From a virus: a stretch of DNA of 54,567 bases. The position numbers were made by a program, and so were the translations under genes. The notes beneath the pieces were generated by a model, which saw only the letters and a list, made by a program, of their open reading frames with translations, made no database searches and was not told the DNA's origin. Shown here piece by piece: positions 9,227 through 54,533 of the stretch (position 1 is the first letter of the stretch; the number at the start of each line of letters is the position of its first letter). The stretch lies in IMG/VR virus record IMGVR_UViG_3300048762_000248, positions 1 through 54,567 of that record; one strand, 5' to 3'.

Positions 9227-10461
9227 GGTTTCGATCCTTTTTTCTTTTTCAGAATTACAAGTATAAGCCCTGCGCCAAGTAACCAAATTGAATTCGGTTC
9301 GGGTGTAATTGTTGGCGGTGTTGGTGGCGTTATGTCGCAACACAATGGCGGTGGCGGAAGTTCACAGCACGGCGGTGTCACGGGTGGCGTCACAGGTGGC
9401 GTTGGTGGTGCTGGCGGCACAGGTGGCGTTGGTGGCACTGGTGGCGGCACAGGTGGCGTTGGTGGCACTGGCGGCGTCACAGGTGGCGTTGGTGGTGCTG
9501 GCGGCACAGGTGGCGTTGGTGGCACTGGTGGCGTCACAGGTGGCGTTGGTGGCACTGGTGGCGTCACAGGTGGCGTTGGTGGTGCTGGCGGCGTTACAGG
9601 TGGCGTCACAGGTGGCACTGGTGGTGTTGGTGGCGTTGGTGGCGTTGGTGGCACTGGTGGCATTGGTGGTACTGGTGGAGTCACAGGTGGCGGTGTCGTC
9701 GGTGTCACTGGACCAATTGGCGGAAATGGAACGAACGGAGGTATCGGATTGACAATGAACGGTGGCCCAACTGGTAACATTAGTAACGGAGGAAACGACC
9801 AAATCGGACCAGGACCAGGACCAATACTGCCCGTTAAGACAATAAACGGAGAAAATATGTCAGGTTGTAATGATCCAGGTGTTTGAGATGGCACCATTTC
9901 AATCGGAACCGGAATACCGGGAGGCGATACGTCAACGGTTTCCGTTGGAGGAAGATCAAACTCTTGTTCGGTTGGTTCATTTGGCTGAGTTGGCTCTTCA
10001 GGTGTTTTGGAAACACGATTGCCGCAACGAGCACGCACGGTATTTCTTCCATCGGATAAAAGTTGCTCACCAGCTTTGACTAGAAGTAATCTTTTTGTCC
10101 AGAATACCTTGTCACCGATACGATACGAGATGTAAGCCTTGGTGTCTTCTTTATTGGCGAAGGGCTTCAATTGCCGAATATTAATTCCCGCATAATGCGC
10201 CCGGACAACCGGATCTGAAACTTTCTGCGATGCGTCTTTGGCACTGTGGACTCCACCGGGTACAATAGAGTATGGATAGATCTTTGGTGAAACCGGATCG
10301 GTCATTGAAGTAGTCTTAGTTGCCCATAAAATCTTTTGAGACGCTTCGTGCTGCGGAGCGCACAGAAAAACAACGGCTAACGAAACAATCGGTATTGCAG
10401 TCAGCGCAAAAATCCTTAGCAGATTTTTGTGCCAATGCGTTCTGTGTTTTCGGCGCACCAT
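9223..10461 (-). CDS. PEP-CTERM-anchored secreted protein with long (PTPPV)n proline/threonine repeat
   Basis: N-terminal signal/anchor (LLRIFALTAIPIVSLAVVFLCA), globular region, about 110-aa TPPVPP repeat, C-terminus TPEPNSIWLLGAGLILVILKKKKGSKP (PEP + hydrophobic helix + basic tail). Confidence 0.6.
   Translation of the reverse strand: MVRRKHRTHWHKNLLRIFALTAIPIVSLAVVFLCAPQHEASQKILWATKTTSMTDPVSPKIYPYSIVPGGVHSAKDASQKVSDPVVRAHYAGINIRQLKPFANKEDTKAYISYRIGDKVFWTKRLLLVKAGEQLLSDGRNTVRARCGNRVSKTPEEPTQPNEPTEQEFDLPPTETVDVSPPGIPVPIEMVPSQTPGSLQPDIFSPFIVLTGSIGPGPGPIWSFPPLLMLPVGPPFIVNPIPPFVPFPPIGPVTPTTPPPVTPPVPPMPPVPPTPPTPPTPPVPPVTPPVTPPAPPTPPVTPPVPPTPPVTPPVPPTPPVPPAPPTPPVTPPVPPTPPVPPPVPPTPPVPPAPPTPPVTPPVTPPCCELPPPPLCCDITPPTPPTITPEPNSIWLLGAGLILVILKKKKGSKP
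9375..9710. repeat. tandem 30-nt (and shorter) GGTGGCGTCACAGGTGGCGTTGGTGGCACT-type repeats
   Basis: many near-identical 30-nt units visible directly; encode the TPPVPPTPPV repeat on the minus strand. Confidence 0.7.
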
Positions 10462-33124: not shown

Positions 33125-33149
33125 GGCCGGTTTCCCGGCCCTTTTGGGA
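33125..33149 (+). terminator. GC-rich hairpin GGGCCGG-TTTC-CCGGCCC followed by TTTT
   Basis: perfect 7-bp GC stem and T-run on plus strand; no convincing plus-strand gene upstream, so function uncertain. Confidence 0.4.
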
Positions 33150-33298
33150 GTTCTTTAACAAAGTTCTCCGACTTCGTGACAGCCTAAGCCGCCATTGCAT
33201 AACTGTTATAGTTAGCGTTTAATGTTCTTCCTTTGTTTCGGGTAGAAAGAACCCGATAAGCCCCGCTTTCACCGCTTTTCTTCAATCGAATTCCTGTT

Positions 33299-33403
33299 GT
33301 GCCCCACCGGAATGCTTTAGAAGCCCATCCCCTGGAAGATTATCTGGGATTCCAGGAACTTCTCATCTAAAGCATTCGGGTGGAGCACTAGGGACTTGAA
33401 CCC
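33299..33403 (-). ncRNA. tRNA-like T-arm (GGGTTCAAGTCCC) fused to a 25-bp imperfect hairpin with nested 7-bp stem
   Basis: minus-strand RNA ...AAGGGTTCAAGTCCCTA-GTGCTCCACCCGAATGCTTTAGATG...CATCTAAAGCATTCCGGTGGGGCAC; no canonical acceptor/anticodon arms could be folded. Confidence 0.35.
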
Positions 33404-33452
33404 TTATCTTGAAGACGCTCATTAGGCATCGACATATTGCTTACTCTCTATT

Positions 33453-33460
33453 TATAGCAT
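33453..33460 (-). promoter_or_regulatory. T4 late-promoter-like TATAAATA box upstream of tRNA region
   Basis: minus-strand TATAAATAGAGAGTAAGC... about 50 nt upstream of the tRNA-like element and 400 nt upstream of the tRNA pair. Confidence 0.4.
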
Positions 33461-33473
33461 GTGGTTCACACAA

Positions 33474-41566: not shown

Positions 41567-42148
41567 CTATACTCCTTGATATTCGAAAAGTCTGTCAAGC
41601 TCCCACCACATTGGCATTGTGTCAATGTTCGATGCGTACAACGCTGCACGAAACTCTGGATATTCCTGTTTGTACATTTCGTAAAATTTAGTATCGGGTT
41701 TTCTTTTTGCTGCTCTGCCGTTTGCAATCCGATCCGCTAGCTTGACAACAATGGCAAGTTCAAGAGCGGCGATCTTCGGATAGGTCTTGATGTTTCTTTC
41801 CTTGCGATTCTTTCCAGGCTCCGCAGTGACCGCTTCAATGATCTGGTTTAGGTAACCAGGAAAATCGAGTTTGAACTGTTCCCGCTGTTCTTGTCTGGTG
41901 AGAACATCTTCCAGAACATCATGCAGCCATGCAGCCGCACGTAGGATCGATGAAATGTGATTGAATTCAATTAGGATGGATTCGACATCTTCAAGATGCG
42001 TGGTGTATGGTACGCCATTACCATACTCTTGACCTTCATGTTTCTTGGTGGCGTAGCGGCGGGCACGAGCAACAAGCTCAACACCTTCGGATATTGCCTT
42101 GATGTTCATCCGTTCGCTAATGCGCTGGTCGAGTTCTGCTCGTAGCAT
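41567..42148 (-). CDS. HD-domain small alarmone hydrolase (SpoT/Mesh1-type (p)ppGpp hydrolase)
   Basis: YATKKHEGQEYGNGVPYTTHLEDVESIL ... AAWLHDVLED matches the RelA/SpoT HD hydrolase blocks (H.GQ.R.SGEPYI.HP ... AALLHDV.EDT); 193 aa, single domain. Confidence 0.6.
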   Translation of the reverse strand: MLRAELDQRISERMNIKAISEGVELVARARRYATKKHEGQEYGNGVPYTTHLEDVESILIEFNHISSILRAAAWLHDVLEDVLTRQEQREQFKLDFPGYLNQIIEAVTAEPGKNRKERNIKTYPKIAALELAIVVKLADRIANGRAAKRKPDTKFYEMYKQEYPEFRAALYASNIDTMPMWWELDRLFEYQGV

Positions 42149-42195
42149 GATCTATCCTAAAGACCATTATAGCACACAATTCGACTCAAGTACAT

Positions 42196-42840
42196 CTATT
42201 TTCTAGCGAAGCGCTTTTTGCCGATGACCACCAAGAATAAGCCGGTGCCAGTTAAAATCATTGAGAACGGTTCGGGAGTCGTTTGGTCGTTTTGTGGGGT
42301 TACAACAAAATAGATTCCTTCAACGAGGGCAAAACAAGGTTGCGGGCCGCAGTTACCAGGAAACGTTTCATAAAGTTGATCCGCAAAAGGTGTTGGACCT
42401 GTTCCCCCATATTCAAGATTGATTTCAGTACCACTTAGGCCATTCACATCAAACAGTAAGCCAGCAGTGCCATTGACCAATTGTAGATTGTTATCTAACT
42501 GATTATCGTAAGTGAACAATCCATCTGTGGATGTGCCCGTAAATCCGACACGATTATCAATGGTAGTAGTGCCAGAAATACCATAGCTGTTGTTAACATA
42601 ATTTCCGTCAAAGCTGGTAATGTTCCAGACATTTGGAGTACCAGAATAAACGGTTGTTAAAGTTCCGCTGCCAAAGATAGCGCCAGGATTGACGCCAGGA
42701 TTGAGATCGCAAGAACCAGAATCACTGTTAGAGAGATCACAAGAACTGATAGCCCATTGGTAAGTATCTGCCATAACAGACATAACAGACATAACAGATA
42801 CGAAAAAAAGAACAACAAACAAAATTGATAGACGTTTCAT
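42196..42840 (-). CDS. PEP-CTERM-anchored secreted protein 1
   Basis: signal peptide MKRLSILFVVLFFVSVMSVMSVMA, N/T/G/S-rich mature part, C-terminus TPEPFSMILTGTGLFLVVIGKKRFARK. Confidence 0.65.
   Translation of the reverse strand: MKRLSILFVVLFFVSVMSVMSVMADTYQWAISSCDLSNSDSGSCDLNPGVNPGAIFGSGTLTTVYSGTPNVWNITSFDGNYVNNSYGISGTTTIDNRVGFTGTSTDGLFTYDNQLDNNLQLVNGTAGLLFDVNGLSGTEINLEYGGTGPTPFADQLYETFPGNCGPQPCFALVEGIYFVVTPQNDQTTPEPFSMILTGTGLFLVVIGKKRFARK
42772..42798. repeat. 3 x 9-nt tandem repeat CATAACAGA
   Basis: direct observation; encodes SVMSVMSVM inside the signal peptide of PEP-CTERM protein 1. Confidence 0.6.
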
Positions 42841-42857
42841 TTTTCAATCCTCTCCAA

Positions 42858-42903
42858 TTTCATCAACCGGAGAGCGTCAGTTCACCACTTCAGAACTGAC
42901 GCT
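42858..42903 (-). promoter_or_regulatory. conserved motif TCTCCGGTTGATGAAA plus perfect 11-bp inverted repeat AGCGTCAGTTC-N9-GAACTGACGCT upstream of PEP-CTERM gene 1
   Basis: motif shared with 44457..44473; IR not followed by T-run on either strand. Confidence 0.4.
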
Positions 42904-42914
42904 AGTGTATACTT

Positions 42915-43499
42915 CTACTTAGCGAAGCGCTTTTTGCCGAAGATGCTGAGACCGAGCAGGCCGGTTCCCAACAGAAGCATGGAGGCCGGTTCGGGAGCCG
43001 TGCCATCATTGCCACCTTGCACCACATTGGCAGTAAAATTAATCTGAGCGCTTGGATTGCCTTGTGGAACGTCGGTGATACATGTATCACCTACATTGCA
43101 ATCACCAGTTACACCATACCCTGCTGCGGTGGCGTACCATGCGATATTATAATTCACACCACCAGAATTACTGAACGAAAGTCCATTTTCAGTGAAATAT
43201 GGAGAATTATTGGTGAACGCATTGTCGTTCGATGCAAAGGCACCAGGATTAAGCAATGTCATCGGTCCAAGATCGGTAACTCCCAGGTAAAGATCGCTGC
43301 CCGTGATACCGACGATAGTGTTTGTTGTTGAATCGACATCGAAAACGCCGCCACCGAATAGTGCTCCGACCGGATTGACGGCATTGGCAGTGGCAAAATC
43401 AAATGAGTAGTAGAGTGTATTGGCTTGAGCGACTGTTCCGCCCAAAAATAATGCGACCACTGCAATGAGCGGAAGCAGGTACAGCCGTTTTGTGTTCAT
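42915..43499 (-). CDS. PEP-CTERM-anchored secreted protein 2
   Basis: signal peptide MNTKRLYLLPLIAVVALFLGGTVAQA, C-terminus APEPASMLLLGTGLLGLSIFGKKRFAK; paralogous tail to protein 1. Confidence 0.65.
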   Translation of the reverse strand: MNTKRLYLLPLIAVVALFLGGTVAQANTLYYSFDFATANAVNPVGALFGGGVFDVDSTTNTIVGITGSDLYLGVTDLGPMTLLNPGAFASNDNAFTNNSPYFTENGLSFSNSGGVNYNIAWYATAAGYGVTGDCNVGDTCITDVPQGNPSAQINFTANVVQGGNDGTAPEPASMLLLGTGLLGLSIFGKKRFAK

Positions 43500-43545
43500 A
43501 AAATCCTTTTTTTGGTTAAACTACTGGTTTCGGTTATGCGCCGGT

Positions 43546-43575
43546 CTGAAATGACAGTTCAATCTGTCATTTCAG
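43546..43575 (-). promoter_or_regulatory. perfect 12-bp inverted repeat CTGAAATGACAG-N6-CTGTCATTTCAG upstream of PEP-CTERM gene 2
   Basis: direct observation; no flanking T-run, so operator or RNA structure rather than intrinsic terminator. Confidence 0.4.
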
Positions 43576-43593
43576 AGTTGTCAGCGCAAGTAA

Positions 43594-44361
43594 TTACGCC
43601 TTGCTGCGAAGGAACTTCTTGCTCATGCTGCCCAAGAAAACCAAAGCCGAGCCAAGCATCGACATCGTACCCGGTTCAGGAGTCTGACTTCCTTGGTTAC
43701 CTACAGACCCAAGAAAGACTTGAGGATAATCGTTGCAACCTGCAACGACGGCATCACAAACATTGGATTGAGATCCAGCCACAGGAACAAGCAACTTATA
43801 ATTGGTATCATACGCAAGTTCTGCTGCTATTGTAGATGTAACCGAAGCTTTGAGCATGTGTGTAATCCACCAAGTGTTGGCAGTAGTGAGATCTGTTGAA
43901 ACACCTGACTCCGTAAATGTTCCTGGTTTGGTGAGATCCCAAATGGCTCCATTGTAATTGGCATTTGGATCTGAAGAAGCATCCATTTGGTTATACAGCC
44001 AAACTTGTTCGGTTAAGTTTTGAAGAGAAACACCTGTGCCATCTTCAAACGTGACACCACCAACTATGGGATCGACATTGGCGGTCCAAGTTTCGCCCGA
44101 CACAATTTCAAATTCCGGCGTAATGCAAGGAACTGTGAAGAGCACTCCATTGACGGTTAAGTTGTATTCACCAGCATAAACGGTTACGCCAAGTAAGGAA
44201 TCGTATAGTGTGCCAACTTGACCGGAACCTGTGGTAACAGGGCCGTTAAAGGTTACATTGACTGGACTTGCCCCTGCGACCAGCGAGAACGCCAGAAGCA
44301 AAAAAGCGAGCGTGAAAATGCTTGTAATTTTGTTCATAATATTTGGATTCTCCAAATCCAT
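43594..44361 (-). CDS. PEP-CTERM-anchored secreted protein 3
   Basis: likely start MNKITSIFTLAFLLLAFSLVAGA (ATG 44337); C-terminus TPEPGTMSMLGSALVFLGSMSKKFLRSKA. Confidence 0.6.
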   Translation of the reverse strand: MDLENPNIMNKITSIFTLAFLLLAFSLVAGASPVNVTFNGPVTTGSGQVGTLYDSLLGVTVYAGEYNLTVNGVLFTVPCITPEFEIVSGETWTANVDPIVGGVTFEDGTGVSLQNLTEQVWLYNQMDASSDPNANYNGAIWDLTKPGTFTESGVSTDLTTANTWWITHMLKASVTSTIAAELAYDTNYKLLVPVAGSQSNVCDAVVAGCNDYPQVFLGSVGNQGSQTPEPGTMSMLGSALVFLGSMSKKFLRSKA

Positions 44362-44456
44362 TTTTCTCTCTTCGCTAGATTTTCTCTGGCGAAATCAACT
44401 TCCAGCTTCCAGAATAGCACAGTAAAGTGCCAAATGCAAACTGCAAACTTTTCCGA

Positions 44457-44515
44457 TTTTCATCAACCGGAGAAAGGTACTGCTTCAATCTTTTAGGTTA
44501 GCACAGAAATGTGCT
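44457..44515 (-). promoter_or_regulatory. second copy of TCTCCGGTTGATGAAA motif and 6-bp palindrome AGCACA-N4-TGTGCT upstream of PEP-CTERM gene 3
   Basis: 16/16-nt identity with motif at 42858..42873. Confidence 0.35.
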
Positions 44516-44550
44516 GATGACAACATTCAATATATATCACGAGCTAAATT

Positions 44551-45117
44551 TTAGCTTTCGTGAAAAATGTAGTCCACTTTAAATCGAAGTTCTTTCAGCG
44601 TTTTATCGTTCAAAATTGTTCGATCAAACGTGGCTCCGTCCAGCCCAATTTCAGTCAAATGCCCCGGAATACCTACGGATGCAACGCCGGGACGTTCCAC
44701 AAACCAGACTTCGCCGCCAGCTTCATGAATGGCATCTATTTCAACTGGGAGTCGAACATCCGAGACTACGACAAATTCATTTTCGGCCATTCGAGTTTTA
44801 AGAATGTTCACCCAATAATTTGGATCTTGAGAACACCGGTATTCGGTTCCAAACCACTGCAAGAGAACTCGGATTCCAGATGGAGTTGGTTTTTCGTAAA
44901 TCATTGATTGAAACGAAGAAATCACCAAATCATATCCAGGTTCCGCAACAGAAAACATCCGTTGCAATGCTAGTTGAAGAAATTCAGAACACTCATCTCG
45001 AATCGCATCCGCAACGGCAATTTTTTTGTAACCGTAGTTGTCTCCAATATAATCGGCCACTACGTCTTTTCCAGAACCACTCTTTCCAGCCAATCCAATT
45101 ATTTTAGAAACCATCAC
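44551..45117 (-). CDS. deoxynucleoside monophosphate kinase (T4 gp1-like)
   Basis: IGLAGKSGSGKDVVADYI P-loop N-terminus similar to T4 gp1 MKLIFLSGVKRSGKDTTADFI. Confidence 0.6.
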   Translation of the reverse strand: MMVSKIIGLAGKSGSGKDVVADYIGDNYGYKKIAVADAIRDECSEFLQLALQRMFSVAEPGYDLVISSFQSMIYEKPTPSGIRVLLQWFGTEYRCSQDPNYWVNILKTRMAENEFVVVSDVRLPVEIDAIHEAGGEVWFVERPGVASVGIPGHLTEIGLDGATFDRTILNDKTLKELRFKVDYIFHES

Positions 45118-45151
45118 TCATAATTAGACCACAGATTAGATATTTGTCAAG

Positions 45152-45562
45152 TTAGACGATATGTGTCGATTTATATTGGTATTGAAAAGTCTTCTTGTAA
45201 TGACGCTCTACCATTTCAAGCATGATTGGTTTGCGGACATGGTTAAATGTGTGAATGCGAACACCGTCTTTCGGCCAGACATTGTTTGCTTCCATCCATA
45301 GCAGAATATCATAACCCGTTTTTTCTTTGCAGTTCTCTGTCATCTTCAACGGGTCGCCATGTTCTTCATCAAACTTGAAGTAAGCAATGTAGTGCTCGTC
45401 TGCAAGATCGTGATCAAGAGATGCAAATTCTACTGTGCCAGTTTTGAGAATTTCAATGGCTTCATCATAGGTGTATGCCCATGTCCAATGAAGGCCGCAC
45501 TGTTCAAATGATGGTGGTTTGCGGTCAGGATCATCATCTACCCAAAGGTCTGTTGCAATCAT
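45152..45562 (-). CDS. hypothetical protein (receiver-like N-terminus, very tentative)
   Basis: MIATDLWVDDDP start reminiscent of REC-domain acidic pocket; 136 aa. Confidence 0.3.
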   Translation of the reverse strand: MIATDLWVDDDPDRKPPSFEQCGLHWTWAYTYDEAIEILKTGTVEFASLDHDLADEHYIAYFKFDEEHGDPLKMTENCKEKTGYDILLWMEANNVWPKDGVRIHTFNHVRKPIMLEMVERHYKKTFQYQYKSTHIV

Positions 45563-45966
45563 AGAGGTCGTCCTTGATCCTCCGTTTGCGCCTGTTGAAC
45601 TGATTTCAGCTTTGTCGGGTCGTATGGTGGAAAGACGAACGTGGCTCTACAAATTTGACATTTACCATCTTTGTAATAGGCATCCCACATATCGCCTGTT
45701 TCTTCGCCGTCGCCATGAAGTTTAAAAACCACGCCCGGAAATTGTTTGGACATGTCAGAGCATTCTTGGTCGTGGTCGTACCACTTTACCGAATCTCCAG
45801 TGATGATTGTACCAACTGTTATGCCGCCATGAACGTCAAGATCTTCGATATCGAAGAGAGATTCGTCACCCGGAAATTCCATTATGCTATCGAGCGCATT
45901 TTTTACAACTTGCAGATCGGCAGTGCCTTCATGAATGGTCAATGTAAAATTTGTGTAGTATCCCAT
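45559..45966 (-). CDS. hypothetical protein
   Basis: 135-aa ORF, 4-nt overlap with downstream gene. Confidence 0.35.
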   Translation of the reverse strand: MGYYTNFTLTIHEGTADLQVVKNALDSIMEFPGDESLFDIEDLDVHGGITVGTIITGDSVKWYDHDQECSDMSKQFPGVVFKLHGDGEETGDMWDAYYKDGKCQICRATFVFPPYDPTKLKSVQQAQTEDQGRPL

Positions 45967-45971
45967 TTTAA

Positions 45972-46178
45972 TTACTCCTTAGATTTGAATGATACTGGAC
46001 CATTTTTATCGTCCGAATTTGGTGACGGAATAGCGAGAATCTTTCCATATGCACGCCACCATGCAATATTGTCTTCACAAGCAAATAGCTTGCTAACGAG
46101 TTGTTCGGCTGCACTTCCAGTGGCTAGATCTTGTGAACCATCATCATAAACGATTTGAATTCTTACCGCTTTCTTCAT
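45972..46178 (-). CDS. hypothetical protein
   Basis: 68-aa ORF. Confidence 0.3.
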   Translation of the reverse strand: MKKAVRIQIVYDDGSQDLATGSAAEQLVSKLFACEDNIAWWRAYGKILAIPSPNSDDKNGPVSFKSKE

Positions 46179-46195
46179 ATCTTATTTTACCAAAT

Positions 46196-46870
46196 TTATT
46201 GCTTGGACGCAAAAAGGTCAATAGTTTCTTTTAGCTGATTGATGTATTTATTTCTGTCTTCCACAAAAATCTTCACACTAAAATCTTCTTCGCCAGCCAT
46301 AAAGATAACGATTTGTTCAGCCTTCATTCCAGTTCGCTCTTCCAGCATCAACGAGTAGCCGGTAGTTTGGAGAAAGTAAGACTTGATCCAATCTTTCTTT
46401 TTTGCTTTCGTGGCTCCCTTAAAATCAACCACTGACAAAACACCATCATATTCTGCAATACAGTCACAACGTCCAGCGACTTTGAGTTCATCTGAATACA
46501 AAGCTATTTCTTGTGCAACGATATTGTCAACTTTAGAAAGGACTCGCTTCATACGATTGAACATGATGCGAACCCGACTTTTTGGATCTTCAGGAAAGGA
46601 TACCGTCTCGTTTTTTAAGTATGCTTCTAGAACTGAATGTAAATCGGTTCCACGATTGCTGGCACATTCGGAAATTTTTTCTGCTTTTTCTTGTCCAATT
46701 CGTTTTCTCCATTTATCTAGAGCATCTTTGCTAAGAATGCTCAAAACTGTAGTAATAGAAGGATAAACGAGGCCAGTCGGAGTCGTATAGAACCTGCTTC
46801 CATCGTCATTGGTTACTGACGTGAGTTCTGGAAGTTGTACAGTGAGCGGGATGTGATTGAAACTTTTCAA
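46196..46870 (-). CDS. PD-(D/E)xK nuclease (RecB/lambda-Exo-like fold)
   Basis: GRCDCIAEYDGVLSVVDFKGATK gives D...D-x-K core; 224 aa. Confidence 0.5.
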   Translation of the reverse strand: MKSFNHIPLTVQLPELTSVTNDDGSRFYTTPTGLVYPSITTVLSILSKDALDKWRKRIGQEKAEKISECASNRGTDLHSVLEAYLKNETVSFPEDPKSRVRIMFNRMKRVLSKVDNIVAQEIALYSDELKVAGRCDCIAEYDGVLSVVDFKGATKAKKKDWIKSYFLQTTGYSLMLEERTGMKAEQIVIFMAGEEDFSVKIFVEDRNKYINQLKETIDLFASKQ

Positions 46871-47289
46871 AGTTCGTTTGATGCTTCTGCCAACAGAGTA
46901 GCACGAAGATCCGTGTTTCCAAATGCAGGAAGTTTTTCTCGAACTGCTTCTAAAATGTTGTTCAGATCCAATTTCTGTACACCATCGATGGCGCTTTGAA
47001 GACTTGTTCGACTAATAATTCCTAATTGGCACGCTCGCAAAACAGCGTGTGTGTAAACGATGTCTTCTTTACATACATCTTTGTATAACATCCAGATTCG
47101 GGAACCATAGATGTTAAGTGTATCTAATGAGAGTAGATGTGCCAGTCCACCAAGGATTGCATCCGGGTCAATAATTGGACCGGTTTTGTACAATTGTGTT
47201 AAAACGGTTATAGCGCCAGGATTTCCTTCCGACAACTTTATCATTGATGATAACGGAGAATCTGTCAATTCAATTCTTTCATTTGGCAT
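46867..47289 (-). CDS. hypothetical protein
   Basis: 140-aa ORF coupled (4-nt overlap) to nuclease gene. Confidence 0.35.
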   Translation of the reverse strand: MPNERIELTDSPLSSMIKLSEGNPGAITVLTQLYKTGPIIDPDAILGGLAHLLSLDTLNIYGSRIWMLYKDVCKEDIVYTHAVLRACQLGIISRTSLQSAIDGVQKLDLNNILEAVREKLPAFGNTDLRATLLAEASNEL

Positions 47290-47336
47290 ACTTTTATTGC
47301 TTTTATTGTATCACAATTTGAGGATCTGTCAAAACC

Positions 47337-47609
47337 TTACTTCAAGTTGTGTTGAAAATTATTTGTAATGAAAACTCCATTTTTGTAGTTATCATCTTTA
47401 TCCCTAAACAACCAATTTTTTCTCTTTGGTGTTTCTGTTGCTTCGGGTTCGGGCGCAGGTTCTTCTCTGGTTTCCAAGCCTCCAAGTATAGACATACGTT
47501 CTTTCAGTTTTTCAAAGGTGACGCCCGGTTGATTATGAATGCCTTCAAAGTGCGACTCGCAGTATGCTGAATCCAGCCAATCAAGACAATAATGACAATA
47601 GTATTCCAT
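47337..47609 (-). CDS. hypothetical protein
   Basis: 90-aa ORF, N-terminal CHYC...C pair. Confidence 0.3.
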   Translation of the reverse strand: MEYYCHYCLDWLDSAYCESHFEGIHNQPGVTFEKLKERMSILGGLETREEPAPEPEATETPKRKNWLFRDKDDNYKNGVFITNNFQHNLK

Positions 47610-47629
47610 AAATATTAATAATTTAAATT

Positions 47630-48409
47630 TTAGGACACTTCAGTTGTCGCTGACAATGAAGCGGAAAAATCCGATTCGGTCTGGTAATGCTGCTGGTTGG
47701 CGACTGTTACAAAGTATGCCGGTGATGCAATTTCAGCAAGAATAAATGATTTACAAATATTACCACGAACGATATCTTCTGGTAAAAACTTTATCATCTC
47801 AAATTCTTTAATTTTTGAAATTACAGACATGAATCTTTCCATACCGCTAGTGTCATATTTACTTTTGTAAAGATCATCCTGTTCGGTATCACCACAAACA
47901 ATCACACGACAATTATTGCCGCATCTAGTTATAACAGTCCGTGCCTCTTTATAGTTCATATTCTGAATTTCATCAATTATTAAAATGCAGTTTTCGAAGG
48001 TGCTGCCACGTAGGAAAGATGTTGAAATGACTTCAAAGACGCCTTTTTGTATTGCAACTTGATACGCATCGCCTCTCTGAAAGAGATCGTTAAGCATTGC
48101 AATATACGGAGATTCATACACAGCCATTTTTTCTTGCAAACGTCCGGGCATGTACCCCATATCCCGGCTTGGTACAGCCGAGCGAATTATGTAGACTTTA
48201 CGATACGGAGAATTTGGATTTAAGACTTCTTTGAGCGCCAAAAAAAGCGAGAGATACGTTTTGCCCGTGCCTGCACACCCGTACAAAAAAAGATTATAAT
48301 CTTCATAATATGAATCAAAACAATCTGATTGGGCATCGGTCATTGGAGCGATTTTCTTTAACCGAAAACTTTGATCCAGGGTTTCATTATTTTTTTTACG
48401 CTTTGCCAT
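47630..48409 (-). CDS. phoH: PhoH-like ATPase
   Basis: LYGCAGTGKTYLSLFLAL Walker A, DEIQN Walker B-like (IIDEIQNM), typical phage PhoH length. Confidence 0.7.
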   Translation of the reverse strand: MAKRKKNNETLDQSFRLKKIAPMTDAQSDCFDSYYEDYNLFLYGCAGTGKTYLSLFLALKEVLNPNSPYRKVYIIRSAVPSRDMGYMPGRLQEKMAVYESPYIAMLNDLFQRGDAYQVAIQKGVFEVISTSFLRGSTFENCILIIDEIQNMNYKEARTVITRCGNNCRVIVCGDTEQDDLYKSKYDTSGMERFMSVISKIKEFEMIKFLPEDIVRGNICKSFILAEIASPAYFVTVANQQHYQTESDFSASLSATTEVS

Positions 48410-48425
48410 TTGTTCTCCTATTTTA

Positions 48426-48701
48426 TCACCTTCCGGCGATTGGTGAAAACTTTTGAGATTTCATTCCGTTTGGATGTGCAGTCTTTACTCTACTTAAAAC
48501 TTCACCCCATGAACTATCCGGTTTCTTAATTCCAAGTCTTATTGAATCGCCTATGGCTGGCATACTAATGACTTGTGTGACACATTCGGTTTGATTACAT
48601 TCTGGACACGGATCTAATTCCGGCAATTTATAGTCTGACATCGGCAATTTTCGTTCAAATAAGAACTCGCATTTATTACATTTAAAGTCATACAGCGGCA
48701 T
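48426..48701 (-). CDS. FmdB-family zinc-ribbon protein
   Basis: MPLYDFKCNKCEF.FE......D....CPEC pattern. Confidence 0.45.
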   Translation of the reverse strand: MPLYDFKCNKCEFLFERKLPMSDYKLPELDPCPECNQTECVTQVISMPAIGDSIRLGIKKPDSSWGEVLSRVKTAHPNGMKSQKFSPIAGR

Positions 48702-48703
48702 TG

Positions 48704-48997
48704 TTATTTTTCTCCTGTCTTATCTAGGTAAGCTAAAAATGGTAAAGTTTTTTCCTGCGGATGAGCTTGTGGAACGGTAGCTTGGTCGGGTAAAGTCCAT
48801 TCAGAGAAAATTCTATTCATCAACTCATCATAGGATTTTCCTGGCATCCAGTATGTTATGCTATCGTCCGCTTGTATTGGAAAAGCGCCTTCAAGACCTA
48901 ACATTGCCGCAACGCCTTCAGCATCTTTTTTATTAAAGAAGAGAAAGGTTCCAGCGAATGATGATGCCTCTAATAATTCTTTGGTGGTCCGTGCCAT
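48704..48997 (-). CDS. hypothetical protein
   Basis: 97-aa ORF. Confidence 0.35.
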   Translation of the reverse strand: MARTTKELLEASSFAGTFLFFNKKDAEGVAAMLGLEGAFPIQADDSITYWMPGKSYDELMNRIFSEWTLPDQATVPQAHPQEKTLPFLAYLDKTGEK

Positions 48998-49007
48998 TCA
49001 AGACTAT

Positions 49008-49499
49008 TTAGCCTTCAGGAGCGTACCATTCCGTAAGCACTACATTTGCTTCAGCTAAGAGAATTCTCACTCGCTCAAAGTCTGGACCATAGCGTGGTGT
49101 CGTCAGCGCCCATTCTTTTTGTCGTTTTCCATCGTAGATAACTTCAATGATTCCGACTTGTATAATTGCCCTACCGCAATCCATACATGGCAGTCCTGGT
49201 AGATACATCTTACAACCTTGTAGTGGTGTTCCCACACGGGCAGCAGCATATATTGCGTTTCTGTCAGCGTGCTCTATCCAGGAATATTTGGCAGGACGTT
49301 CAAGTCGTTCAGGAACATCGTCTCGAATGCCTCTAGGAAAACTATTGTAGCCGGTTGATCGGATGTTGTGATCTGGACCTGTAATGACACACCCTACCTG
49401 CGTATTCGGATCTTTGCTTCTTGTAGAGATCGGCCCTATCATGGCCATAAAATAAGTATTCCAATCAGGTATGGTTCTCATAAAGCCATTAAACCACAA
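49008..49499 (-). CDS. dCMP deaminase
   Basis: HAERNAI-type block (WIEHADRNAIYAA) and PCMDCGRAI zinc-ligand block; annotated start is TTG, first ATG at 49481. Confidence 0.7.
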   Translation of the reverse strand: MWFNGFMRTIPDWNTYFMAMIGPISTRSKDPNTQVGCVITGPDHNIRSTGYNSFPRGIRDDVPERLERPAKYSWIEHADRNAIYAAARVGTPLQGCKMYLPGLPCMDCGRAIIQVGIIEVIYDGKRQKEWALTTPRYGPDFERVRILLAEANVVLTEWYAPEG

Positions 49500-49543
49500 A
49501 TTTTAGATTTGTCAAGCAACTAAATACAGTAATGAGGCATGAC

Positions 49544-49834
49544 ATGACCTACTCACAAGAAATTGGACGAACATTGATCGAAACTATTAATGAATTGTTT
49601 GTTGAAGAGATGGATGACTATCAATCCAGAAAAGCTGCCCGTAAAGCTCATTATGAAAAATATGTAAAAGGATGGAAAAAAGTTCCTTGCAGTGCATGTA
49701 ATGGATCGGGTCGATATGATGATACAGGTAGTCCAAAATGTGGTGCTTGCAGAGGTACTGGAAAAGAACGAATATCGCCGGAACAATATGTAAAACATAA
49801 AATGAAGACGGATTTTCCACGGTATAAAAAATGA
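49544..49834 (+). CDS. small protein with DnaJ-type CxxCxGxG zinc finger
   Basis: CSACNGSGRYDDTGSPKCGACRGTG; N-terminus MTYSQEIGRTLIETINELF paralogous to next gene. Confidence 0.4.
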   Translation: MTYSQEIGRTLIETINELFVEEMDDYQSRKAARKAHYEKYVKGWKKVPCSACNGSGRYDDTGSPKCGACRGTGKERISPEQYVKHKMKTDFPRYKK

Positions 49835-49844
49835 GGATTTTAAT

Positions 49845-50816
49845 ATGAACTACTCGCAAGAAATCGGACAAACACTGGCTGAAACACTCACAGAGTTGTT
49901 TGCCATTGATGATATCCCGCTGAATGAAATCCGTGATCTGAAAACATTGCAAGGTCACATGGACACAGCAAAAGAAAAATACGGTGAAAAACATCCGAGA
50001 TACCAAGCTCTACAAAATCTTCATGCCAAGAAAACAGCTACCGAAGCACGCAAAACCGAAAGAATGGGACGTATTAAAACTCGTCAGGAATTTCATGCAA
50101 AGCGCTATGGCTATACGCCCGTGAAGGGATCAAAGCGTAATCAATGGGTTCATGCTGGAACCGGCCATACTTTGAACTTTGGTGGTGGTCGGTCCTGGTC
50201 GCATATGAAAGCTGGCGGCAAGCGTGCGAAGGGCGGCAATGCCACTCCAATTCGTGCTTTGAGGCAACACCTTGCAAAGCTTCATGAAGAAATCGATTCG
50301 CAGGGCGAACAGTTGCAAGAAATTCGACACTATAATGTGCTTGGAAAATTGGCAAGCCAAGCGTTGTTGGCAAGCGATCCACGGAAGCGTCAAGAGCTTC
50401 AACGAATTCTATCTCTACGTAAACGAAAAATGAATCTTAGATCGGAAGCTGAATCTGCTGGTGGAAAAGCTATTGCACGAGAAAAGGCTGCAAGACAAGC
50501 TGCTGGAAGACCTCCAATGGATTCTGATGATGTTAATTTAATTCTTCGTTCATATAGTCCTGTTGAAAAAGAGCGACATGAATTTCTTAAGAAAGTTTAC
50601 GCACCGGTCAAAGAAGAAGTGGGTCGTCATAAAACCACAAAGAAAGCTGATGATCCAACCTTCAGCAAAGAATGGTCCGGTGTAAGTCGAGCGCCACATT
50701 GTGGCGGATCAGGATGTCCAACATGCGGGACTAAAATGCACCACGAAGGCGGCAGTCATTATTGTCCGTCTTGTGACGATTACAAACACAAACCACAAAA
50801 TTGCAAGTATATGTGA
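49845..50816 (+). CDS. hypothetical basic protein, N-terminal paralog of 49544..49834, C-terminal zinc ribbon
   Basis: MNYSQEIGQTLAETLTELF; ends CGGSGCPTCG...CPSCDD. Confidence 0.45.
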   Translation: MNYSQEIGQTLAETLTELFAIDDIPLNEIRDLKTLQGHMDTAKEKYGEKHPRYQALQNLHAKKTATEARKTERMGRIKTRQEFHAKRYGYTPVKGSKRNQWVHAGTGHTLNFGGGRSWSHMKAGGKRAKGGNATPIRALRQHLAKLHEEIDSQGEQLQEIRHYNVLGKLASQALLASDPRKRQELQRILSLRKRKMNLRSEAESAGGKAIAREKAARQAAGRPPMDSDDVNLILRSYSPVEKERHEFLKKVYAPVKEEVGRHKTTKKADDPTFSKEWSGVSRAPHCGGSGCPTCGTKMHHEGGSHYCPSCDDYKHKPQNCKYM

Positions 50817-50822
50817 TAGAAT

Positions 50823-51216
50823 AATGGTAATGACATTCGAATCTTTTACGAAAGGGTATTTGGCTTACACATTATCTGCTGCAAGCCGCAACGATCTGTT
50901 GCATCATTTTAGGCCCAAATACCAAGTCATTTGTCAGCACGTAACATATAAGTTTCCGGCGAAGAGTACTGATGATCTTCCACCAGCGGCACATGAAGCT
51001 CGTGTGGTTGGGTATGCAGAAGAACCTGGACTTGAAGCGTTGGTTGTCGAAATCAATGGGTCCACAAAAAGACCAGATGGAGGAACTTTTCATATCACTT
51101 TAAGTTTGGATCGGTCACAAGGCAAGAAGCCGGTTCACTCAAACGATCTGGTGAACAAAAAGTTCACACACGTCTCACCTATCACAATTCACTTAGCTCC
51201 CGCATTTCTTCAGTAG
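50823..51216 (+). CDS. 2H-phosphoesterase-like protein (LigT/Acb1-like fold, tentative)
   Basis: two H-x-T-x motifs (QHVTYKF and FHITLSL) about 60 aa apart; ATG 50823 chosen inside longer ORF 50701..51216. Confidence 0.4.
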
Positions 51217-51571
51217 TGAGACGTTTCCACATTTCAGGATCGTATTCTCGAAGGTCTTCTTTTGTTCCACCAAATCCTGAATTATCATCGAAAGGAATTT
51301 CAAATTTTGGATCTAGTAGTTCACGCACAGGGCGAAACACGTCAAAATGTTCTTCGTCGCTTGGATGTTTGATGGTCTCGATAAAGATTTGACCAAATTT
51401 TTCTCGCCAATGAAAGAAACACCCTTCTTTGGTGTTCCAGCGGGCTACAGTGCAATTCCGGCATCTTCCAAGGTAATAGGCCCCATCTTTTAAATCGGCC
51501 TTCTGTAGCAACTTCCTGCCAGTTGTTTCGTCGTATTCTGGTAAGTATTTATTTGGTTGGTTGCCCATCAT
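51182..51571 (-). CDS. hypothetical protein
   Basis: 129-aa Trp-rich ORF; overlaps PDF gene end by 22 nt. Confidence 0.35.
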   Translation of the reverse strand: MMGNQPNKYLPEYDETTGRKLLQKADLKDGAYYLGRCRNCTVARWNTKEGCFFHWREKFGQIFIETIKHPSDEEHFDVFRPVRELLDPKFEIPFDDNSGFGGTKEDLREYDPEMWKRLTTEEMRELSEL

Positions 51572-52076
51572 TTTTTACAATTTTGTACATCTGAGTCGCA
51601 CGCATCACATACAGAATACCCTTCAAATGGTCAAATTCATGTTGGTAGATGCGTGCCTGAAAATCATAAAACACCGTCATGTGCTGATTGCCTTCGGCAT
51701 CCCAATACGTACAGCTAACCTGTGGAAAGCGTTCTACATCACCTTCCACGCCGGGAATGCTTAAGCATCCTTCTCGGGCCACAATTTTCTTGCCTGTTTC
51801 GTTGATGGTATGCGGATTGATAAGAGAGATGTATTCATCTTTCTGCCCTTCTTCCATAATTCGCATCACAAAGATGTTGAGGTTCCGGCCCACTTGCGGA
51901 GCGGCTAGACCCACGCCATTCGGTTTACTCATCAGCGTTTCGATCATATCGGCGCACAATTCTTTAATGTCTTGATTGATACCCGGATTAAAGTCGGCGT
52001 CAACTGACAGGGCTTGAAGAATTTCTGCTTCATCGGCGTTCGTGATTTTGAGTACATTTAGAACCATAAACTTCAT
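51549..52076 (-). CDS. def: peptide deformylase
   Basis: all three PDF motifs: GLAAPQVG (GxGxAAxQ), EGCLSIPG, QHEFDHLKG (HExxH); start may extend to 52115. Confidence 0.7.
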   Translation of the reverse strand: MKFMVLNVLKITNADEAEILQALSVDADFNPGINQDIKELCADMIETLMSKPNGVGLAAPQVGRNLNIFVMRIMEEGQKDEYISLINPHTINETGKKIVAREGCLSIPGVEGDVERFPQVSCTYWDAEGNQHMTVFYDFQARIYQHEFDHLKGILYVMRATQMYKIVKNDGQPTK

Positions 52077-52121
52077 TGTACCAGATTGAAATCCCGTTGT
52101 CAAGGGCAGATGCATCTATTT

Positions 52122-54533
52122 TTAGGAAGACCAAAGTCCAGATCGTTTCGTTGGAGACGATGTAAACCCAAATCCACCTTCGTCAATGGAGCTAAGACCT
52201 CGCATGATGTCATCAGCATCTTTGTATACTTGGCGAGCCTTGGTGATCTGCATTTTTACTTGTGGTTGAGCAAGAATTGTTTCGAGTGCGGTACTAATAT
52301 CAGATGCATCAATTGTCTTATGAGAACCAAGTGCTTTTTTGATATAGATGAAATCATCTTTCTTCGATTCACGATCACGCAACCGCTTGGCAAGTGTTCT
52401 TTCAATTTCACTCGCTTTCTTTGCATCGGTTAATACAAGCTCATGCATGAACTTAAAATGGATTTCATCAGCCACTTTACCAAGAACGTCGCCGGGAGCG
52501 CCGTCCATTAATTCTGCCCACTTAACATAGTCTTCTTCCTGAACGGAAGAGTCAATTGGTAAACCTCTGGTGAGGAATTGTTTGAATAATTTAATGCGTT
52601 CTTCTTTGGTTAACTGACCAACAACATCTACATATTTGAAACGACGCAATATAGCTTCAGGAACAGCTTTGGGGCTATTGGTGAGCGCAACTAAAAACAC
52701 ACCTTCATAACCAATAACACCATCCATCATTTCTTGCATAACGCCTGTCATACGACCACCGTCATACGCAGCGTGAACACCTTCGCCGTAAGTAAAGAGT
52801 CGGTCAAATTCGTCCATTAAAATTCCTACCGGCTTTGTATAACGACTATTACGGCGTAGATCTTTAGCATGGTCATACATGCGCTTAATGTTTTTAACGC
52901 TTTCGTGCATGTACGCTGTTAATAGATCGGCGCACGCCACATTGAATCCAATGATTCGTTTATCAGCACCGATGGCTTTTGCCAACTCAGTTTTCCCGCA
53001 CCCGTAAGGACCAATGAGCATGAGGTTGCTTTTGACATCGCCTCTTGGAGCAGACAGTCGCATGATATTAGGATGCGATGCAACTTTTACAACTTCTTCT
53101 ACATGCTCTTTGGCCTTAACAAAACTGGCACCCACAACATCATCATAATTGATTTTCGGTGCAGGTTGACGTTCTACTTCTAAAGATCCAAGTTGTCCTG
53201 ACCGCCCACAATAAAATTCATTTTCGTCTTTGATATTGCGAGAAAGATTTTTTTGTTCTTCTGTCTTGAGAATGTCGTCCATCGCCTTTTTCAGTTCGAT
53301 GGCTTCTCTAGTCCTAGATGTGGCATAGTCTTCGGTAGTAAGTTCGTACCGATCCATTCCAGCCAATGCTGTAAGTGTTTCCTGAAGATTCAAAAATAAC
53401 TTTGTGCGTGCAACGGCTAGATCGTGATCCATCTTTGTGCGTGGCGCAATATCTTCCGCTGAAGGTCGAATCGACAGGAAATTGATTCGATTATATTGCT
53501 TCACTAATGCATTTGGATCGGAAATTACAAACGGATGATTTTCTCCTTGAACACGAAGATTAGCTTTGTGTACCAATGCATGAAGAGAAGTTACTATTCC
53601 ACCATACACCGATTGAAATTCTTGAATGACTGATAGAATGCCTTTTGTTAATTCATTCGGAGCGTTGATGTATCTCCAGTAAGTCTTATTGGAAATAGAC
53701 ATCAGTATTCCGGCCCAATCTTCAACTTCGCCGTTGTCCAGTAGCTTTGTGGTTTGTGTTTTTCCAGTTGGTTTTCCACGTTTTAGTACGGGAGACACTT
53801 TTTCATAATACTTTGGAAGATTTTCTGACACATCAATGAGTAACTGTGTGAGAACACAGTTGTCGTCTAAAAGCGCAACAGCCGGTCCTGTGTTTTCCTT
53901 TTGTGGAGGTCTCACTCCAAAAAACGACATCATGAGTTGATCTTCAAACATGTCGTTGTCTTGGCTTTGACCCATTGTGCCACCCAAGAACTTCTTCCGC
54001 AATTTTTTATATTCATTGCGAGTTCCTAGATAGATCCCACCAAGCAATTTCTCAAACGCAAGAACAGTATTTTCATACTCATCCATTGCTGCTTGCAACA
54101 AATTGGCTCCGCTTTCTTCAGCCATCATTAGTGATGTGAGATTAGACTTCGAACTATCTAACGCAGGCAATAGTAATTGACTTGAAGTTTCAATAATGCT
54201 CAGGCGATTGTGTGAATCGGAAATGAAGCGGAGAAGAGTTCCCCCAACTTGATTGATGAATTTGAACAAAGACAAATCCTCCAATCCGGCTTTACTTGTC
54301 GGGTCGAATCTGTCCCACAACGGATCAAGAGTGATTCGTGCTTTTTTCAAAACTATGCTGAGTCTGTTTTTAGAGAAACAAACAGCGTCATACAGATCTT
54401 CCAACTCTAACCTGATCGAGCCGTATTTTGCTAAAATTGTTGCGTTGTGTTGATGCAACAATTTCTGTGTTTCGCCTGTCAACAACATATCAAGCGGGTC
54501 GAATGCTTCTTGACTTCCTGTTTTATTACTCAT
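52122..54533 (-). CDS. AAA+ ATPase (classical AAA/FtsH-CDC48-type module) with about 470-aa unknown N-terminal region
   Basis: LIGPYGCGKTELAKAIG Walker A, GILMDEFD Walker B, second region of homology (VFLVALTN...AILRRF). Confidence 0.7.
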   Translation of the reverse strand: MSNKTGSQEAFDPLDMLLTGETQKLLHQHNATILAKYGSIRLELEDLYDAVCFSKNRLSIVLKKARITLDPLWDRFDPTSKAGLEDLSLFKFINQVGGTLLRFISDSHNRLSIIETSSQLLLPALDSSKSNLTSLMMAEESGANLLQAAMDEYENTVLAFEKLLGGIYLGTRNEYKKLRKKFLGGTMGQSQDNDMFEDQLMMSFFGVRPPQKENTGPAVALLDDNCVLTQLLIDVSENLPKYYEKVSPVLKRGKPTGKTQTTKLLDNGEVEDWAGILMSISNKTYWRYINAPNELTKGILSVIQEFQSVYGGIVTSLHALVHKANLRVQGENHPFVISDPNALVKQYNRINFLSIRPSAEDIAPRTKMDHDLAVARTKLFLNLQETLTALAGMDRYELTTEDYATSRTREAIELKKAMDDILKTEEQKNLSRNIKDENEFYCGRSGQLGSLEVERQPAPKINYDDVVGASFVKAKEHVEEVVKVASHPNIMRLSAPRGDVKSNLMLIGPYGCGKTELAKAIGADKRIIGFNVACADLLTAYMHESVKNIKRMYDHAKDLRRNSRYTKPVGILMDEFDRLFTYGEGVHAAYDGGRMTGVMQEMMDGVIGYEGVFLVALTNSPKAVPEAILRRFKYVDVVGQLTKEERIKLFKQFLTRGLPIDSSVQEEDYVKWAELMDGAPGDVLGKVADEIHFKFMHELVLTDAKKASEIERTLAKRLRDRESKKDDFIYIKKALGSHKTIDASDISTALETILAQPQVKMQITKARQVYKDADDIMRGLSSIDEGGFGFTSSPTKRSGLWSS

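Follow-up and report, generated by a model that had tools for sequence, protein, structure and literature searches.

Why would a lytic phage encode substrates for a bacterial protein-sorting enzyme that is nowhere in view in its own DNA? The question is posed by a stretch of viral DNA of 54,567 nt (IMG/VR record IMGVR_UViG_3300048762_000248, positions 1 to 54,567; "the window" below), in which three consecutive minus-strand genes, lying between positions 42196 and 44515, and a fourth gene elsewhere encode predicted secreted proteins with C-termini of the PEP-CTERM type, the sorting signal of exosortase substrates. We refer to the trio as P1, P2 and P3 and to the fourth gene as P4. The answer that we favor, at a probability of about 0.65, is that all four genes encode cargo that the phage carries for the PEP-CTERM/exosortase pathway of bacteria, at least P2 being bacterial in origin, that they occupy non-late regions of a T4-like genome, and that the exosortase of the host would sort their products, with remodelling of the cell surface as the outcome. 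The argument builds on gene architecture, phage context, the family membership of P2, the linkage of P2's cellular relatives to exosortase genes and the conservation of the sorting signals, all of which are documented below.

Judged by their predicted architecture, P1 to P4 are secreted proteins in which a signal peptide is followed by a domain poor in lysine and arginine (K+R) and by a C-terminal PEP motif, transmembrane (TM) helix and basic cluster. P1 (42196..42840, minus strand; 214 aa) has the signal peptide MKRLSILFVVLFFVSVMSVMSVMA ahead of DT, a mature domain of ~163 aa and the tail TPEPFSMILTGTGLFLVVIGKKRFARK. The end of this signal peptide (SVMSVMA before DT) is encoded by a 9-nt sequence, TCTGTTATG, repeated three times in tandem at 42772..42798 (minus strand) and specifying SVMSVMSVM. 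P2 (42915..43499, minus strand; 194 aa) comprises a signal peptide ending in GGTVAQA before NT, a small β-barrel domain of ~140 aa and the tail APEPASMLLLGTGLLGLSIFGKKRFAK. P3 (43594..44361, minus strand) was called as a 255-aa open reading frame (ORF) with the signal peptide MNKITSIFTLAFLLLAFSLVAGA before SP, a mature domain of ~195 aa and the tail TPEPGTMSMLGSALVFLGSMSKKFLRSKA; its start is more likely the second ATG at 44337 (247 aa), which is preceded by GGAG 12 nt upstream and would give a canonical signal peptide (ending in LVAGA before SP). P4 (9223..10461, minus strand; 412 aa) is built from a basic N-terminus with a hydrophobic segment, a domain of ~120 aa, a Pro/Thr-rich stalk of ~170 aa, CC motifs and the tail TPEPNSIWLLGAGLILVILKKKKGSKP. 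The hydrophobic segment may serve as an uncleaved signal anchor and not as a signal peptide. The TPPVPP-type stalk is encoded by a tandem DNA repeat at 9374..9692 (minus strand; 30-nt period, ~10.9 copies), and the overall design, with globular head, proline-rich stalk and tag, fits a protein that is anchored by, or handed over from, its C-terminus. The strand of P4 was taken as coding from operon context and from the signal and tag of P4 only; antisense to the proline-rich repeat runs a 257-aa Gly-rich ORF with GGTGGVGG repeats (9113-9886, plus strand), probably a by-product of the repeat.

Inspection and hydropathy place an N-terminal signal segment in each of the four proteins and no TM segment between signal and tail. 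The AlphaFold2 (AF2) model of P2 (predicted local distance difference test score, pLDDT, 87) agrees, with a helix at the N-terminal signal, a β-barrel, a flexible PEP linker and a C-terminal helix; that of P3 (pLDDT 36.7) is unusable, and sequence searches of the PDB with P1, P3 and the P4 N-terminal domain gave no match. The PEP-CTERM signal as originally defined (Haft et al. 2006, PMC1569441) occupies the extreme C-terminus and runs from a near-invariant Pro-Glu-Pro through a TM helix to a basic cluster. When the 309 six-frame ORFs of at least 50 aa in the window were scanned with a regular expression for such an ending (C-terminal P[ES]P, 12-24 uncharged residues, basic cluster), only P1, P2, P3 and P4 matched, and in all four tails P-E-P directly precedes the TM helix and the basic cluster comes after it. 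The tails of P1 and P2 are 61% identical over 36 aa, and a 24-nt stretch is common to the two at 96%. PEP-CTERM cargo was described as poor in basic residues and enriched in Thr/Ser (Haft et al. 2006, PMC1569441), a bias with which P1 to P3 agree (mature parts: N 8-13%, T 11-12%, G 10-14%, K+R 0-1.5%). The homologues found for the mature domains of P1, P2 and P3 all end in PEP-CTERM-type tails; those of P3 include P0006 and P0007 (33% identity), and P3-homologue tails match PF07589. P2 itself scores above the curated cut-offs of both general models, TIGR02595 (19.9 bits, cut-off 16) and PF07589 (26.0 bits, cut-off 20.7).

The initial annotation of this DNA had recognized three consecutive minus-strand genes for secreted N/T/G/S-rich proteins and a 9-nt repeat, present three times, within the first signal peptide, and coordinates, signal segments and composition bear it out on both. 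Its further claim, that the trio and P4 end in a PEP-CTERM signal, stands for the coordinates, the C-termini and the motif architecture in four cases out of four, but with curated hidden Markov models (HMMs) only for P2; the check by TIGR02595 that it proposed leaves P1 and P3 below threshold and P4 without a match.

On profile evidence, P2 is a full-length member of a large, unnamed cellular family of small β-barrel PEP-CTERM proteins. When a profile of P2 and its two nearest relatives was run against 1.84 billion representatives, 1463 proteins reached E<=1e-3 and 108 reached E<=1e-10; of these 108, nearly all are 160-200 aa long and matched from end to end. The motifs PGxFASNDNxF, NGLSF, YNIY and CxxGxxCIT are shared across the family, in which 52 of 60 members match TIGR02595 and 45 of 60 have weak matches to floc_PepA. 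P2 falls outside the named NCBIfam PEP-CTERM families, with scores below their cut-offs: 22.3 versus 85 bits for THxN (NF038125), 13.9 versus 80 for floc_PepA (NF033554), 14.3 versus 125 for XDP1 (NF041927) and 14.8 versus 65 for NF038129.

The genomic setting of the cellular relatives points to exosortases. The sole relative of P2 among 185,579 reference species, found in an Acidobacteriota metagenome-assembled genome (MAG; uncultured Terracidiphilus sp.), is 42% identical and matches at E 3.5e-20 when signal peptide and tag are removed. An Exosortase_EpsH gene (PF09721, E 2.9e-41) precedes its gene by 3.1 kb, and the locus also encodes two glycosyltransferases, a FemAB-like protein and an 823-aa TPR protein. 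The P2-like gene heads three consecutive genes for proteins of ~200 aa, each with a signal peptide and a VPEY/VPEG tail (L007 9851-12840); VPEY/VPEG instead of PEP looks like a variant of the sorting signal. P0012 (50% identity) is a second such relative, with genes for an exosortase, EpsI and a TPR protein ~1 kb away; P0003 (49% identity), a third, comes from a Gram-negative chromosomal contig that also encodes RuvC, ArgJ, KsgA, TonB_C and Wzi. Since cellular relatives adjoin exosortase genes, P2 is the phage copy of a cellular substrate family tied to exosortase loci. The second gene of the MAG trio weakly resembles P1 (BLASTP E 0.004, sorting signals removed).

Kinship inside the phage trio was also considered. 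In pairwise BLASTP among P1 to P3 only the tails align, and the mature domains show no detectable paralogy to one another. P1 was rejected, as unproven, as a paralogue of P2, full-length hhalign giving 97.7% but the profile an E value of 0.05 once signal peptide and tag were removed; P3 was rejected as a member of the P2 family, its match being confined to the tag.

Gene content identifies the window as part of a T4-like myovirus. Pfam and family scans detect the T4-type genes gp2 (DNA end protector), gp48 and gp54 (tail-tube/baseplate) and gp32, together with a baseplate hub, a gp5-type hub-lysozyme, a deoxynucleoside monophosphate (dNMP) kinase, PhoH, a peptide deformylase and GIY-YIG homing endonucleases. 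The gp32 protein is 46-48% identical to its counterparts in cyanomyoviruses; gp32, baseplate hub and PhoH reach at most 48% identity to proteins of cultured phages, the nearest being cyanomyoviruses and phages of Stenotrophomonas, Caulobacter and Variovorax. The lineage is therefore a deep, uncultured one. The trio sits on one strand, densely packed between the dNMP kinase gene and an HD phosphohydrolase gene with phage family matches. A second, independent assembly from a separate sequencing run (Logan contig SRR35911405, 79,399 bp) is 100.000% identical to window positions 42122-54567 over 12,446 bp, the trio included, so that the trio locus is genuine phage DNA and no chimera. The T4 late-promoter octamer TATAAATA occurs six times in the window versus 1.7 expected, several copies lying directly upstream of gene starts, that of gp32 among them. 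None of the six is near the trio or P4, and these genes are on that account assigned to non-late regions.

A glimpse of how the trio evolves comes from a short contig, L004 (1,076 bp, run ERR14365156), which is 85.5% identical to window positions 42179-43314 and has the same P2-P1 arrangement. Over ~200 nt, from the P2 tag through the intergenic region to the P1 signal peptide, a single base differs between the two, and the SVM repeat of the P1 signal peptide is present in two copies in L004 and three in the window. The P1 homologue is 77% identical and its tail identical. In the sampled mature part of P2 we counted 26 non-synonymous and nine synonymous changes, a ratio of non-synonymous to synonymous rates (dN/dS) of 0.92, and no change in the tag. 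The first ~70 mature residues of P1 (42560-42770, minus strand) are highly divergent, with indels, a dS of 1.35 and a dN of 0.45, between nearly identical flanks; this hypervariable segment has the appearance of an allele acquired by exchange or of a diversifying patch. The rest of mature P1 is under purifying selection (dN/dS 0.125). The sorting signals are thus the most constrained parts, which fits proteins that need correct sorting and have fast-changing exposed surfaces. Related phages carrying the same genes without the tail motif would have spoken against a PEP-CTERM assignment; L004 retains the tags.

The contrast between frozen tags and drifting mature domains could also be taken to mean that the tags are the active part of these proteins. 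Expressed in abundance, they would serve as decoys, saturating the host exosortase, blocking processing of the host's own PEP-CTERM proteins and loosening exopolysaccharide (EPS) or flocs, so that progeny phages escape. That four different cargo proteins carry similar tags would suit such a role, as would the requirement for PEP-CTERM proteins in floc or adhesion phenotypes (PMC9850573, PMC12188702). We nevertheless regard it as unlikely: the fold of P2 is well conserved across a large family, and purifying selection on the conserved part of P1 argues that the mature domains are not dispensable.

Some observations run counter to the cargo reading, and the alternatives that they favor must be weighed. 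P1 and P3 fall short of the curated cut-offs (P1, TIGR02595 11.9 bits; P3, TIGR02595 12.7 and PF07589 16.8 bits), and P4 matches neither TIGR02595 nor PF07589, showing instead a weak C-terminal match to XDP1 (NF041927; 12.9 bits versus a cut-off of 125). No exosortase Pfam match was found among the scanned ORFs of the window or in the 10 kb past its right end (out of a source contig of 118.6 kb, itself shorter than T4-like genomes). Small membrane proteins with effects on the envelope are part of the repertoire of T4-type phages. One could thus envision the four tails as plain C-terminal membrane anchors of periplasmic proteins tethered to the inner membrane, for example of an immunity or superinfection-exclusion type, with PEP being incidental and no exosortase involved. 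This possibility is about as improbable as that of decoys. Short models of this kind are known to miss members, PF07589 recovering 22% of the TIGR02595 matches (PMC1569441), and for the sub-threshold P1, P3 and P4 the assignment rests on architecture, composition and homologues. A mere anchor would explain neither the P-E-P placed directly before the helix and its basic cluster in all four proteins nor the passing of both models by P2, and it sits poorly with the tie between the P2 family and exosortase loci in cells, the PF07589 matches of P3-homologue tails and the cargo-typical composition.

The scarcity of relatives is a further difficulty. A tblastn search of 50,697 GenBank phages with P1 to P4 gave no match, nor did blastn with the locus, PHROGs, PADLOC or a BFVD fold search with P2 only. 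In IMG/VR, no close relative suited to synteny analysis was found with P2 or the dNMP kinase as query, and a metagenome scan with the dNMP kinase yielded only relatives of 26-34% identity, without synteny and without PEP ORFs. So few relatives, together with a dN/dS near 1 in the mature domain of P2, might betoken recently captured passenger genes that have no role in infection and are decaying. This is less probable still. Two phages whose nucleotide sequences are 14.5% apart both retain intact ORFs, signal peptides and tags; the G+C content (GC) of the trio, at 45%, has shifted from the 55-60% of cellular homologues toward the 42.6% of the phage; and there are four such genes at two loci, with PEP-CTERM genes in unrelated phages as well. 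Finally, an assembly chimera or cellular contamination, which the cellular relatives of P2 might suggest, is very hard to maintain when an assembly from another dataset is identical across the trio and both its flanks, when the three genes share one strand, tightly packed between the dNMP kinase and HD phosphohydrolase genes, and when L004 has the same P2-P1 order.

The occurrence of PEP-CTERM genes in other phages emerged from a scan of IMG/VR with an alignment of tags as the query. It yielded 11 loci (10 distinct) with ORFs combining signal peptide and PEP-CTERM, none related to the window. One such gene (L049 5326-6105) lies on a 132-kb phage contig of 35% GC, 2.6 kb from a gp32-type single-stranded DNA-binding protein gene, and another (L053 1747-2406) on a 7.5-kb phage contig, 1.7 kb from a T4-type large terminase gene. 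The phage nature of the source was read from contig genes for these two only, the other eight distinct loci being counted as IMG/VR entries. Our literature search found nothing on PEP-CTERM cargo in tailed phages, the nearest item being one 2026 preprint on a PEP-CTERM domain in a Dehalococcoides integrative element. PEP-CTERM cargo thus recurs in unrelated phages and appears to have gone unreported.

If the cargo reading holds, the phage would probably depend on its host for the sorting enzyme. The absence of any credible polytopic ORF in the window, which the initial annotation had noted and which ORF and Pfam scans confirm and extend to the next 10 kb on the right, taken with the presence of PEP-CTERM cargo, supports a diderm, exosortase-bearing host. 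The core of that annotation, namely phage-encoded, Sec-exported PEP-CTERM cargo in need of a host exosortase, finds support in the T4-like context, the HMM scores of P2, its exosortase-linked relatives and the tags of L004. As to which host, the Acidobacteriota relative of P2, the cellular homologues of 55-60% GC and the type of transfer-messenger RNA (tmRNA) hint at diderm lineages, none of these clues being decisive. The cultured relatives of gp32, baseplate hub and PhoH were set aside for this purpose as uninformative, given identities of at most 48%.

The tmRNA deserves mention of its own. It is of the permuted, two-piece kind (33093-33470, minus strand), with the tag peptide ANYNSYAMAA, and clears the gathering score of Rfam RF04321 (56 versus 47 bits); the best match within the clan is to the betaproteobacterial two-piece beta_tmRNA RF01850, at 54.2 bits and under the gathering score of 84. 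Two tRNA-Thr genes (32896-32972 and 32973-33047, minus strand) adjoin it. A phage-borne tmRNA may be a clue to the host and is of interest as a component of trans-translation.

The intergenic regions of the trio contain structures of their own. Hairpin A (43537..43588, minus strand), between P3 and P2, begins a few nucleotides past the P3 stop and has a perfect 13-bp stem (43545-43557/43564-43576, loop 6) with a 7-bp outer stem. Hairpin B (42873..42903, minus strand), between P2 and P1, begins 11 nt past the P2 stop and has a perfect 11-bp stem (42873-42883/42893-42903) with a 9-nt loop. Neither has a U-run. Hairpin B is followed directly by hairpin C (42851..42873, minus strand), which holds the first copy of a 16-nt motif (42858-42873); the 5' half of the motif, UCUCCGGUU, pairs with AAUUGGAGA, and the predicted fold buries five of the seven nucleotides of the P1 Shine-Dalgarno sequence GGAGAGG. 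Fold energies are -28.5 kcal/mol for A (z -6.0) and -27.5 kcal/mol for B+C (z -5.6). In the whole window there are three distinct perfect hairpin repeats (stem >=10, loop 3-12), and two of them are A and B; counted with nested entries they number seven versus 0.63 in shuffles. Hairpins A and B are specific to the trio and no general feature of this phage. Hairpins B and C are identical in L004. The third repeat (54434-54464; 10 bp, loop 11) falls within the 5' part of a gene for an 803-aa AAA ATPase.

The 16-mer, TCTCCGGTTGATGAAA, is present in exactly two copies in the window, at 42858-42873 and 44458-44473, both on the minus strand, and no further copy appears even at three mismatches; by a rough estimate, the chance that two leaders of ~75-190 nt have an exact 16-mer in common is about 3e-6. 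The second copy, which belongs to the P3 leader and precedes the P3 start by ~100 nt, lies in a similar hairpin (44448..44476, minus strand; UCCGGUU/AAUCGGA) with the same loop sequence. Nearby are two similar small hairpins, GCACWTTWCTGTGCT, at 44500-44514 and 44416-44430 (region 44416..44515, minus strand), 84 nt apart; two matches of this type compare with 0.43 expected, and the 6-bp repeat at 44500-44515 is trivial alone. As a whole the P3 leader is weakly structured (z -1.4 to -2.3). A wider conservation of the 16-mer was considered and rejected: its 29 exact IMG/VR matches are about the chance number and stand in unrelated contexts, one of them, in the distant T4-like fragment L017, inside a gene.

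What might these structures do? Cellular genes of the P2 family have a strong G+C-rich hairpin 30-50 nt past each stop, mostly with a U-run, and because each ends in this way, the phage order of gene, hairpin, gene, hairpin mirrors the layout of a cellular cassette. In the MAG trio, too, each gene has its own terminator hairpin after it. No T-run follows A or B and the terminator scan lists neither, so they fall outside the definition of an intrinsic terminator; the scan of the trio locus for sigma-70 promoters and terminators gave counts no better than shuffles. Hairpins A and B are best read, from the predicted folds, as cassette-type hairpins, terminator-derived or stabilizing 3' ends, more so than as operators, and the first copy of the 16-nt motif as a putative translational element, an RNA stem-loop that would sequester the P1 ribosome-binding site. 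On these points the initial annotation fares unevenly. The identical 16-nt element that it saw in the P1 and P3 leaders is real, and of the perfect inverted repeats without T-run that it gave as 11, 12 and 6 bp the first and last are correct and the second is one of 13 bp. Its view of them as operators, not terminators, lacks support in that form, for the hairpins follow stop codons, at a distance of 10-12 nt, as the terminator hairpins of cells do, and the 16-nt motif pairs with the P1 Shine-Dalgarno sequence.

The steps by which the cargo would act can be modelled on the known pathway, which consists of Sec export, signal cleavage, C-terminal tethering, exosortase cleavage at PEP and transfer to the surface or EPS (PMC1569441, PMC12188702). 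Transcription of the phage genes would take place during infection and involve no T4-type late promoter; the trio would probably be read from upstream or from weak sigma-70-like sites. Sec would export each product and the signal peptide be cleaved, whereupon the C-terminal helix would tether the protein in the inner membrane with its PEP motif at the periplasmic face. The host exosortase would then recognize PEP, cut off the tail and hand the mature domain to the cell surface or the exopolysaccharide layer. What follows is speculative: the surface or matrix of the infected cell might be remodelled, most likely in such a way that receptors or EPS are masked against further adsorption, or else that aggregation changes. 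Surface or matrix remodelling, whether it serves exclusion, receptor masking or altered aggregation, is our leading idea of what the cargo might do, prompted by analogy with phage lipoproteins such as T5 Llp.

Other features of the region may be noted in passing. Around the trio lie genes for an HD_4 phosphohydrolase (SpoT/RelA-hydrolase-like), a cREC_REC domain protein and a peptide deformylase (minus-strand ORFs 41567-42148, 45152-45562 and 51549-52115), and immediately beyond the window (L006 5215-7930) come two radical-SAM proteins, an IMPDH-like protein and a 792-aa LAGLIDADG protein. GIY-YIG/NUMOD3 homing endonuclease genes are found at 16737-17939 (minus strand), overlapping the 3' end of a gp48-like gene (17762-19126), and at 7846-8586 (plus strand), with an TATAAATA late promoter 6 nt upstream. 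A tRNA-Cys(GCA) call at 14878-14957 (plus strand) overlaps the 3' end of an ORF on the minus strand (14899-15648); either call may be in error, or the ORF may need a different start or stop.

Among environmental, floc-forming and biofilm bacteria the exosortase pathway occurs widely, and its substrates, its chemistry and the route across the outer membrane are poorly understood. The investment of a lytic phage in four substrates, with no exosortase in its visible DNA, would imply that the pathway stays active and useful during infection. Small, compact cargo such as the ~140-aa β-barrel of P2 could provide natural probes of the pathway. The findings also suggest a new route by which phages of soils, peat, sludge and blooms might modify superinfection, aggregation or the surface of cells, and the PEP-CTERM tag might serve as a host-range marker that narrows the hosts of an uncultured phage to exosortase-bearing diderms. 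A bolder proposal, possible but distinctly tentative, is that virulent phages of exosortase-bearing bacteria routinely carry PEP-CTERM cargo as an unrecognized accessory class, which would either coat the cell or matrix with proteins of the phage's choosing, for exclusion or receptor masking, or jam the enzyme with decoys and so dissolve floc or biofilm, the present trio being a mobile cassette derived from an exosortase locus.

Comparison with known systems helps to place these genes. They resemble the substrates of the PEP-CTERM/exosortase (EpsH/XrtA) system (PMC1569441) in having a signal peptide, a cargo domain poor in basic residues and rich in Thr/Ser/Asn/Gly, no other TM segment and a C-terminal PEP, TM and basic tail; cargo genes come several to a genome, P2 scores above the model cut-offs and exosortase genes adjoin those of its relatives. 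They differ in that a T4-like lytic phage carries them, that no exosortase/EPS locus is found in the DNA in view and that three of the four tails are sub-threshold. Floc and adhesion proteins, namely PepA of Zoogloea/Aquincola (PMC9850573) and the CrtB-dependent proteins of Nostoc punctiforme (PMC12188702), are likewise small secreted PEP-CTERM proteins at the interface of surface and EPS. P2, however, is no member of floc_PepA, its score of 13.9 bits comparing with a cut-off of 80.

Regulatory parallels can be drawn within the T4 group. PeSLs are stem-loop/promoter cassettes that flank novel ORFs in the hyperplastic regions of T4-type genomes, and the T4 gene e and I-TevI are preceded by hairpins that sequester the ribosome-binding site. 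Here, too, strong stem-loops bracket accessory ORFs, and one hairpin is predicted to cover a Shine-Dalgarno sequence. Unlike PeSLs, the hairpins of the trio are followed by no early-promoter consensus and are unique, with no genome-wide repeat; unlike the gene e and I-TevI hairpins, the one at the ribosome-binding site in the trio has no late promoter inside it.

The closest parallels in principle are phage proteins that exploit a sorting system of the host. SasX, a prophage-encoded LPXTG substrate of sortase in Gram-positive bacteria, is also cargo of a mobile element for a C-terminal sorting enzyme encoded by the host, but there the phages are temperate, the hosts monoderm and the enzyme sortase A, whereas here the phage is of the T4-like virulent type, the host would be diderm and the enzyme an exosortase. 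Llp of T5 and Cor of phi80/N15 are outer-membrane lipoproteins of phages; host sorting delivers them and the receptor is blocked. Their signal is a lipobox read by the Lol system, in place of PEP-CTERM and exosortase, and receptor masking is in our case a hypothesis. The logic would nonetheless be the same: the phage supplies only a cargo bearing the sorting signal of its host, and the machinery of the host delivers that cargo to the envelope.

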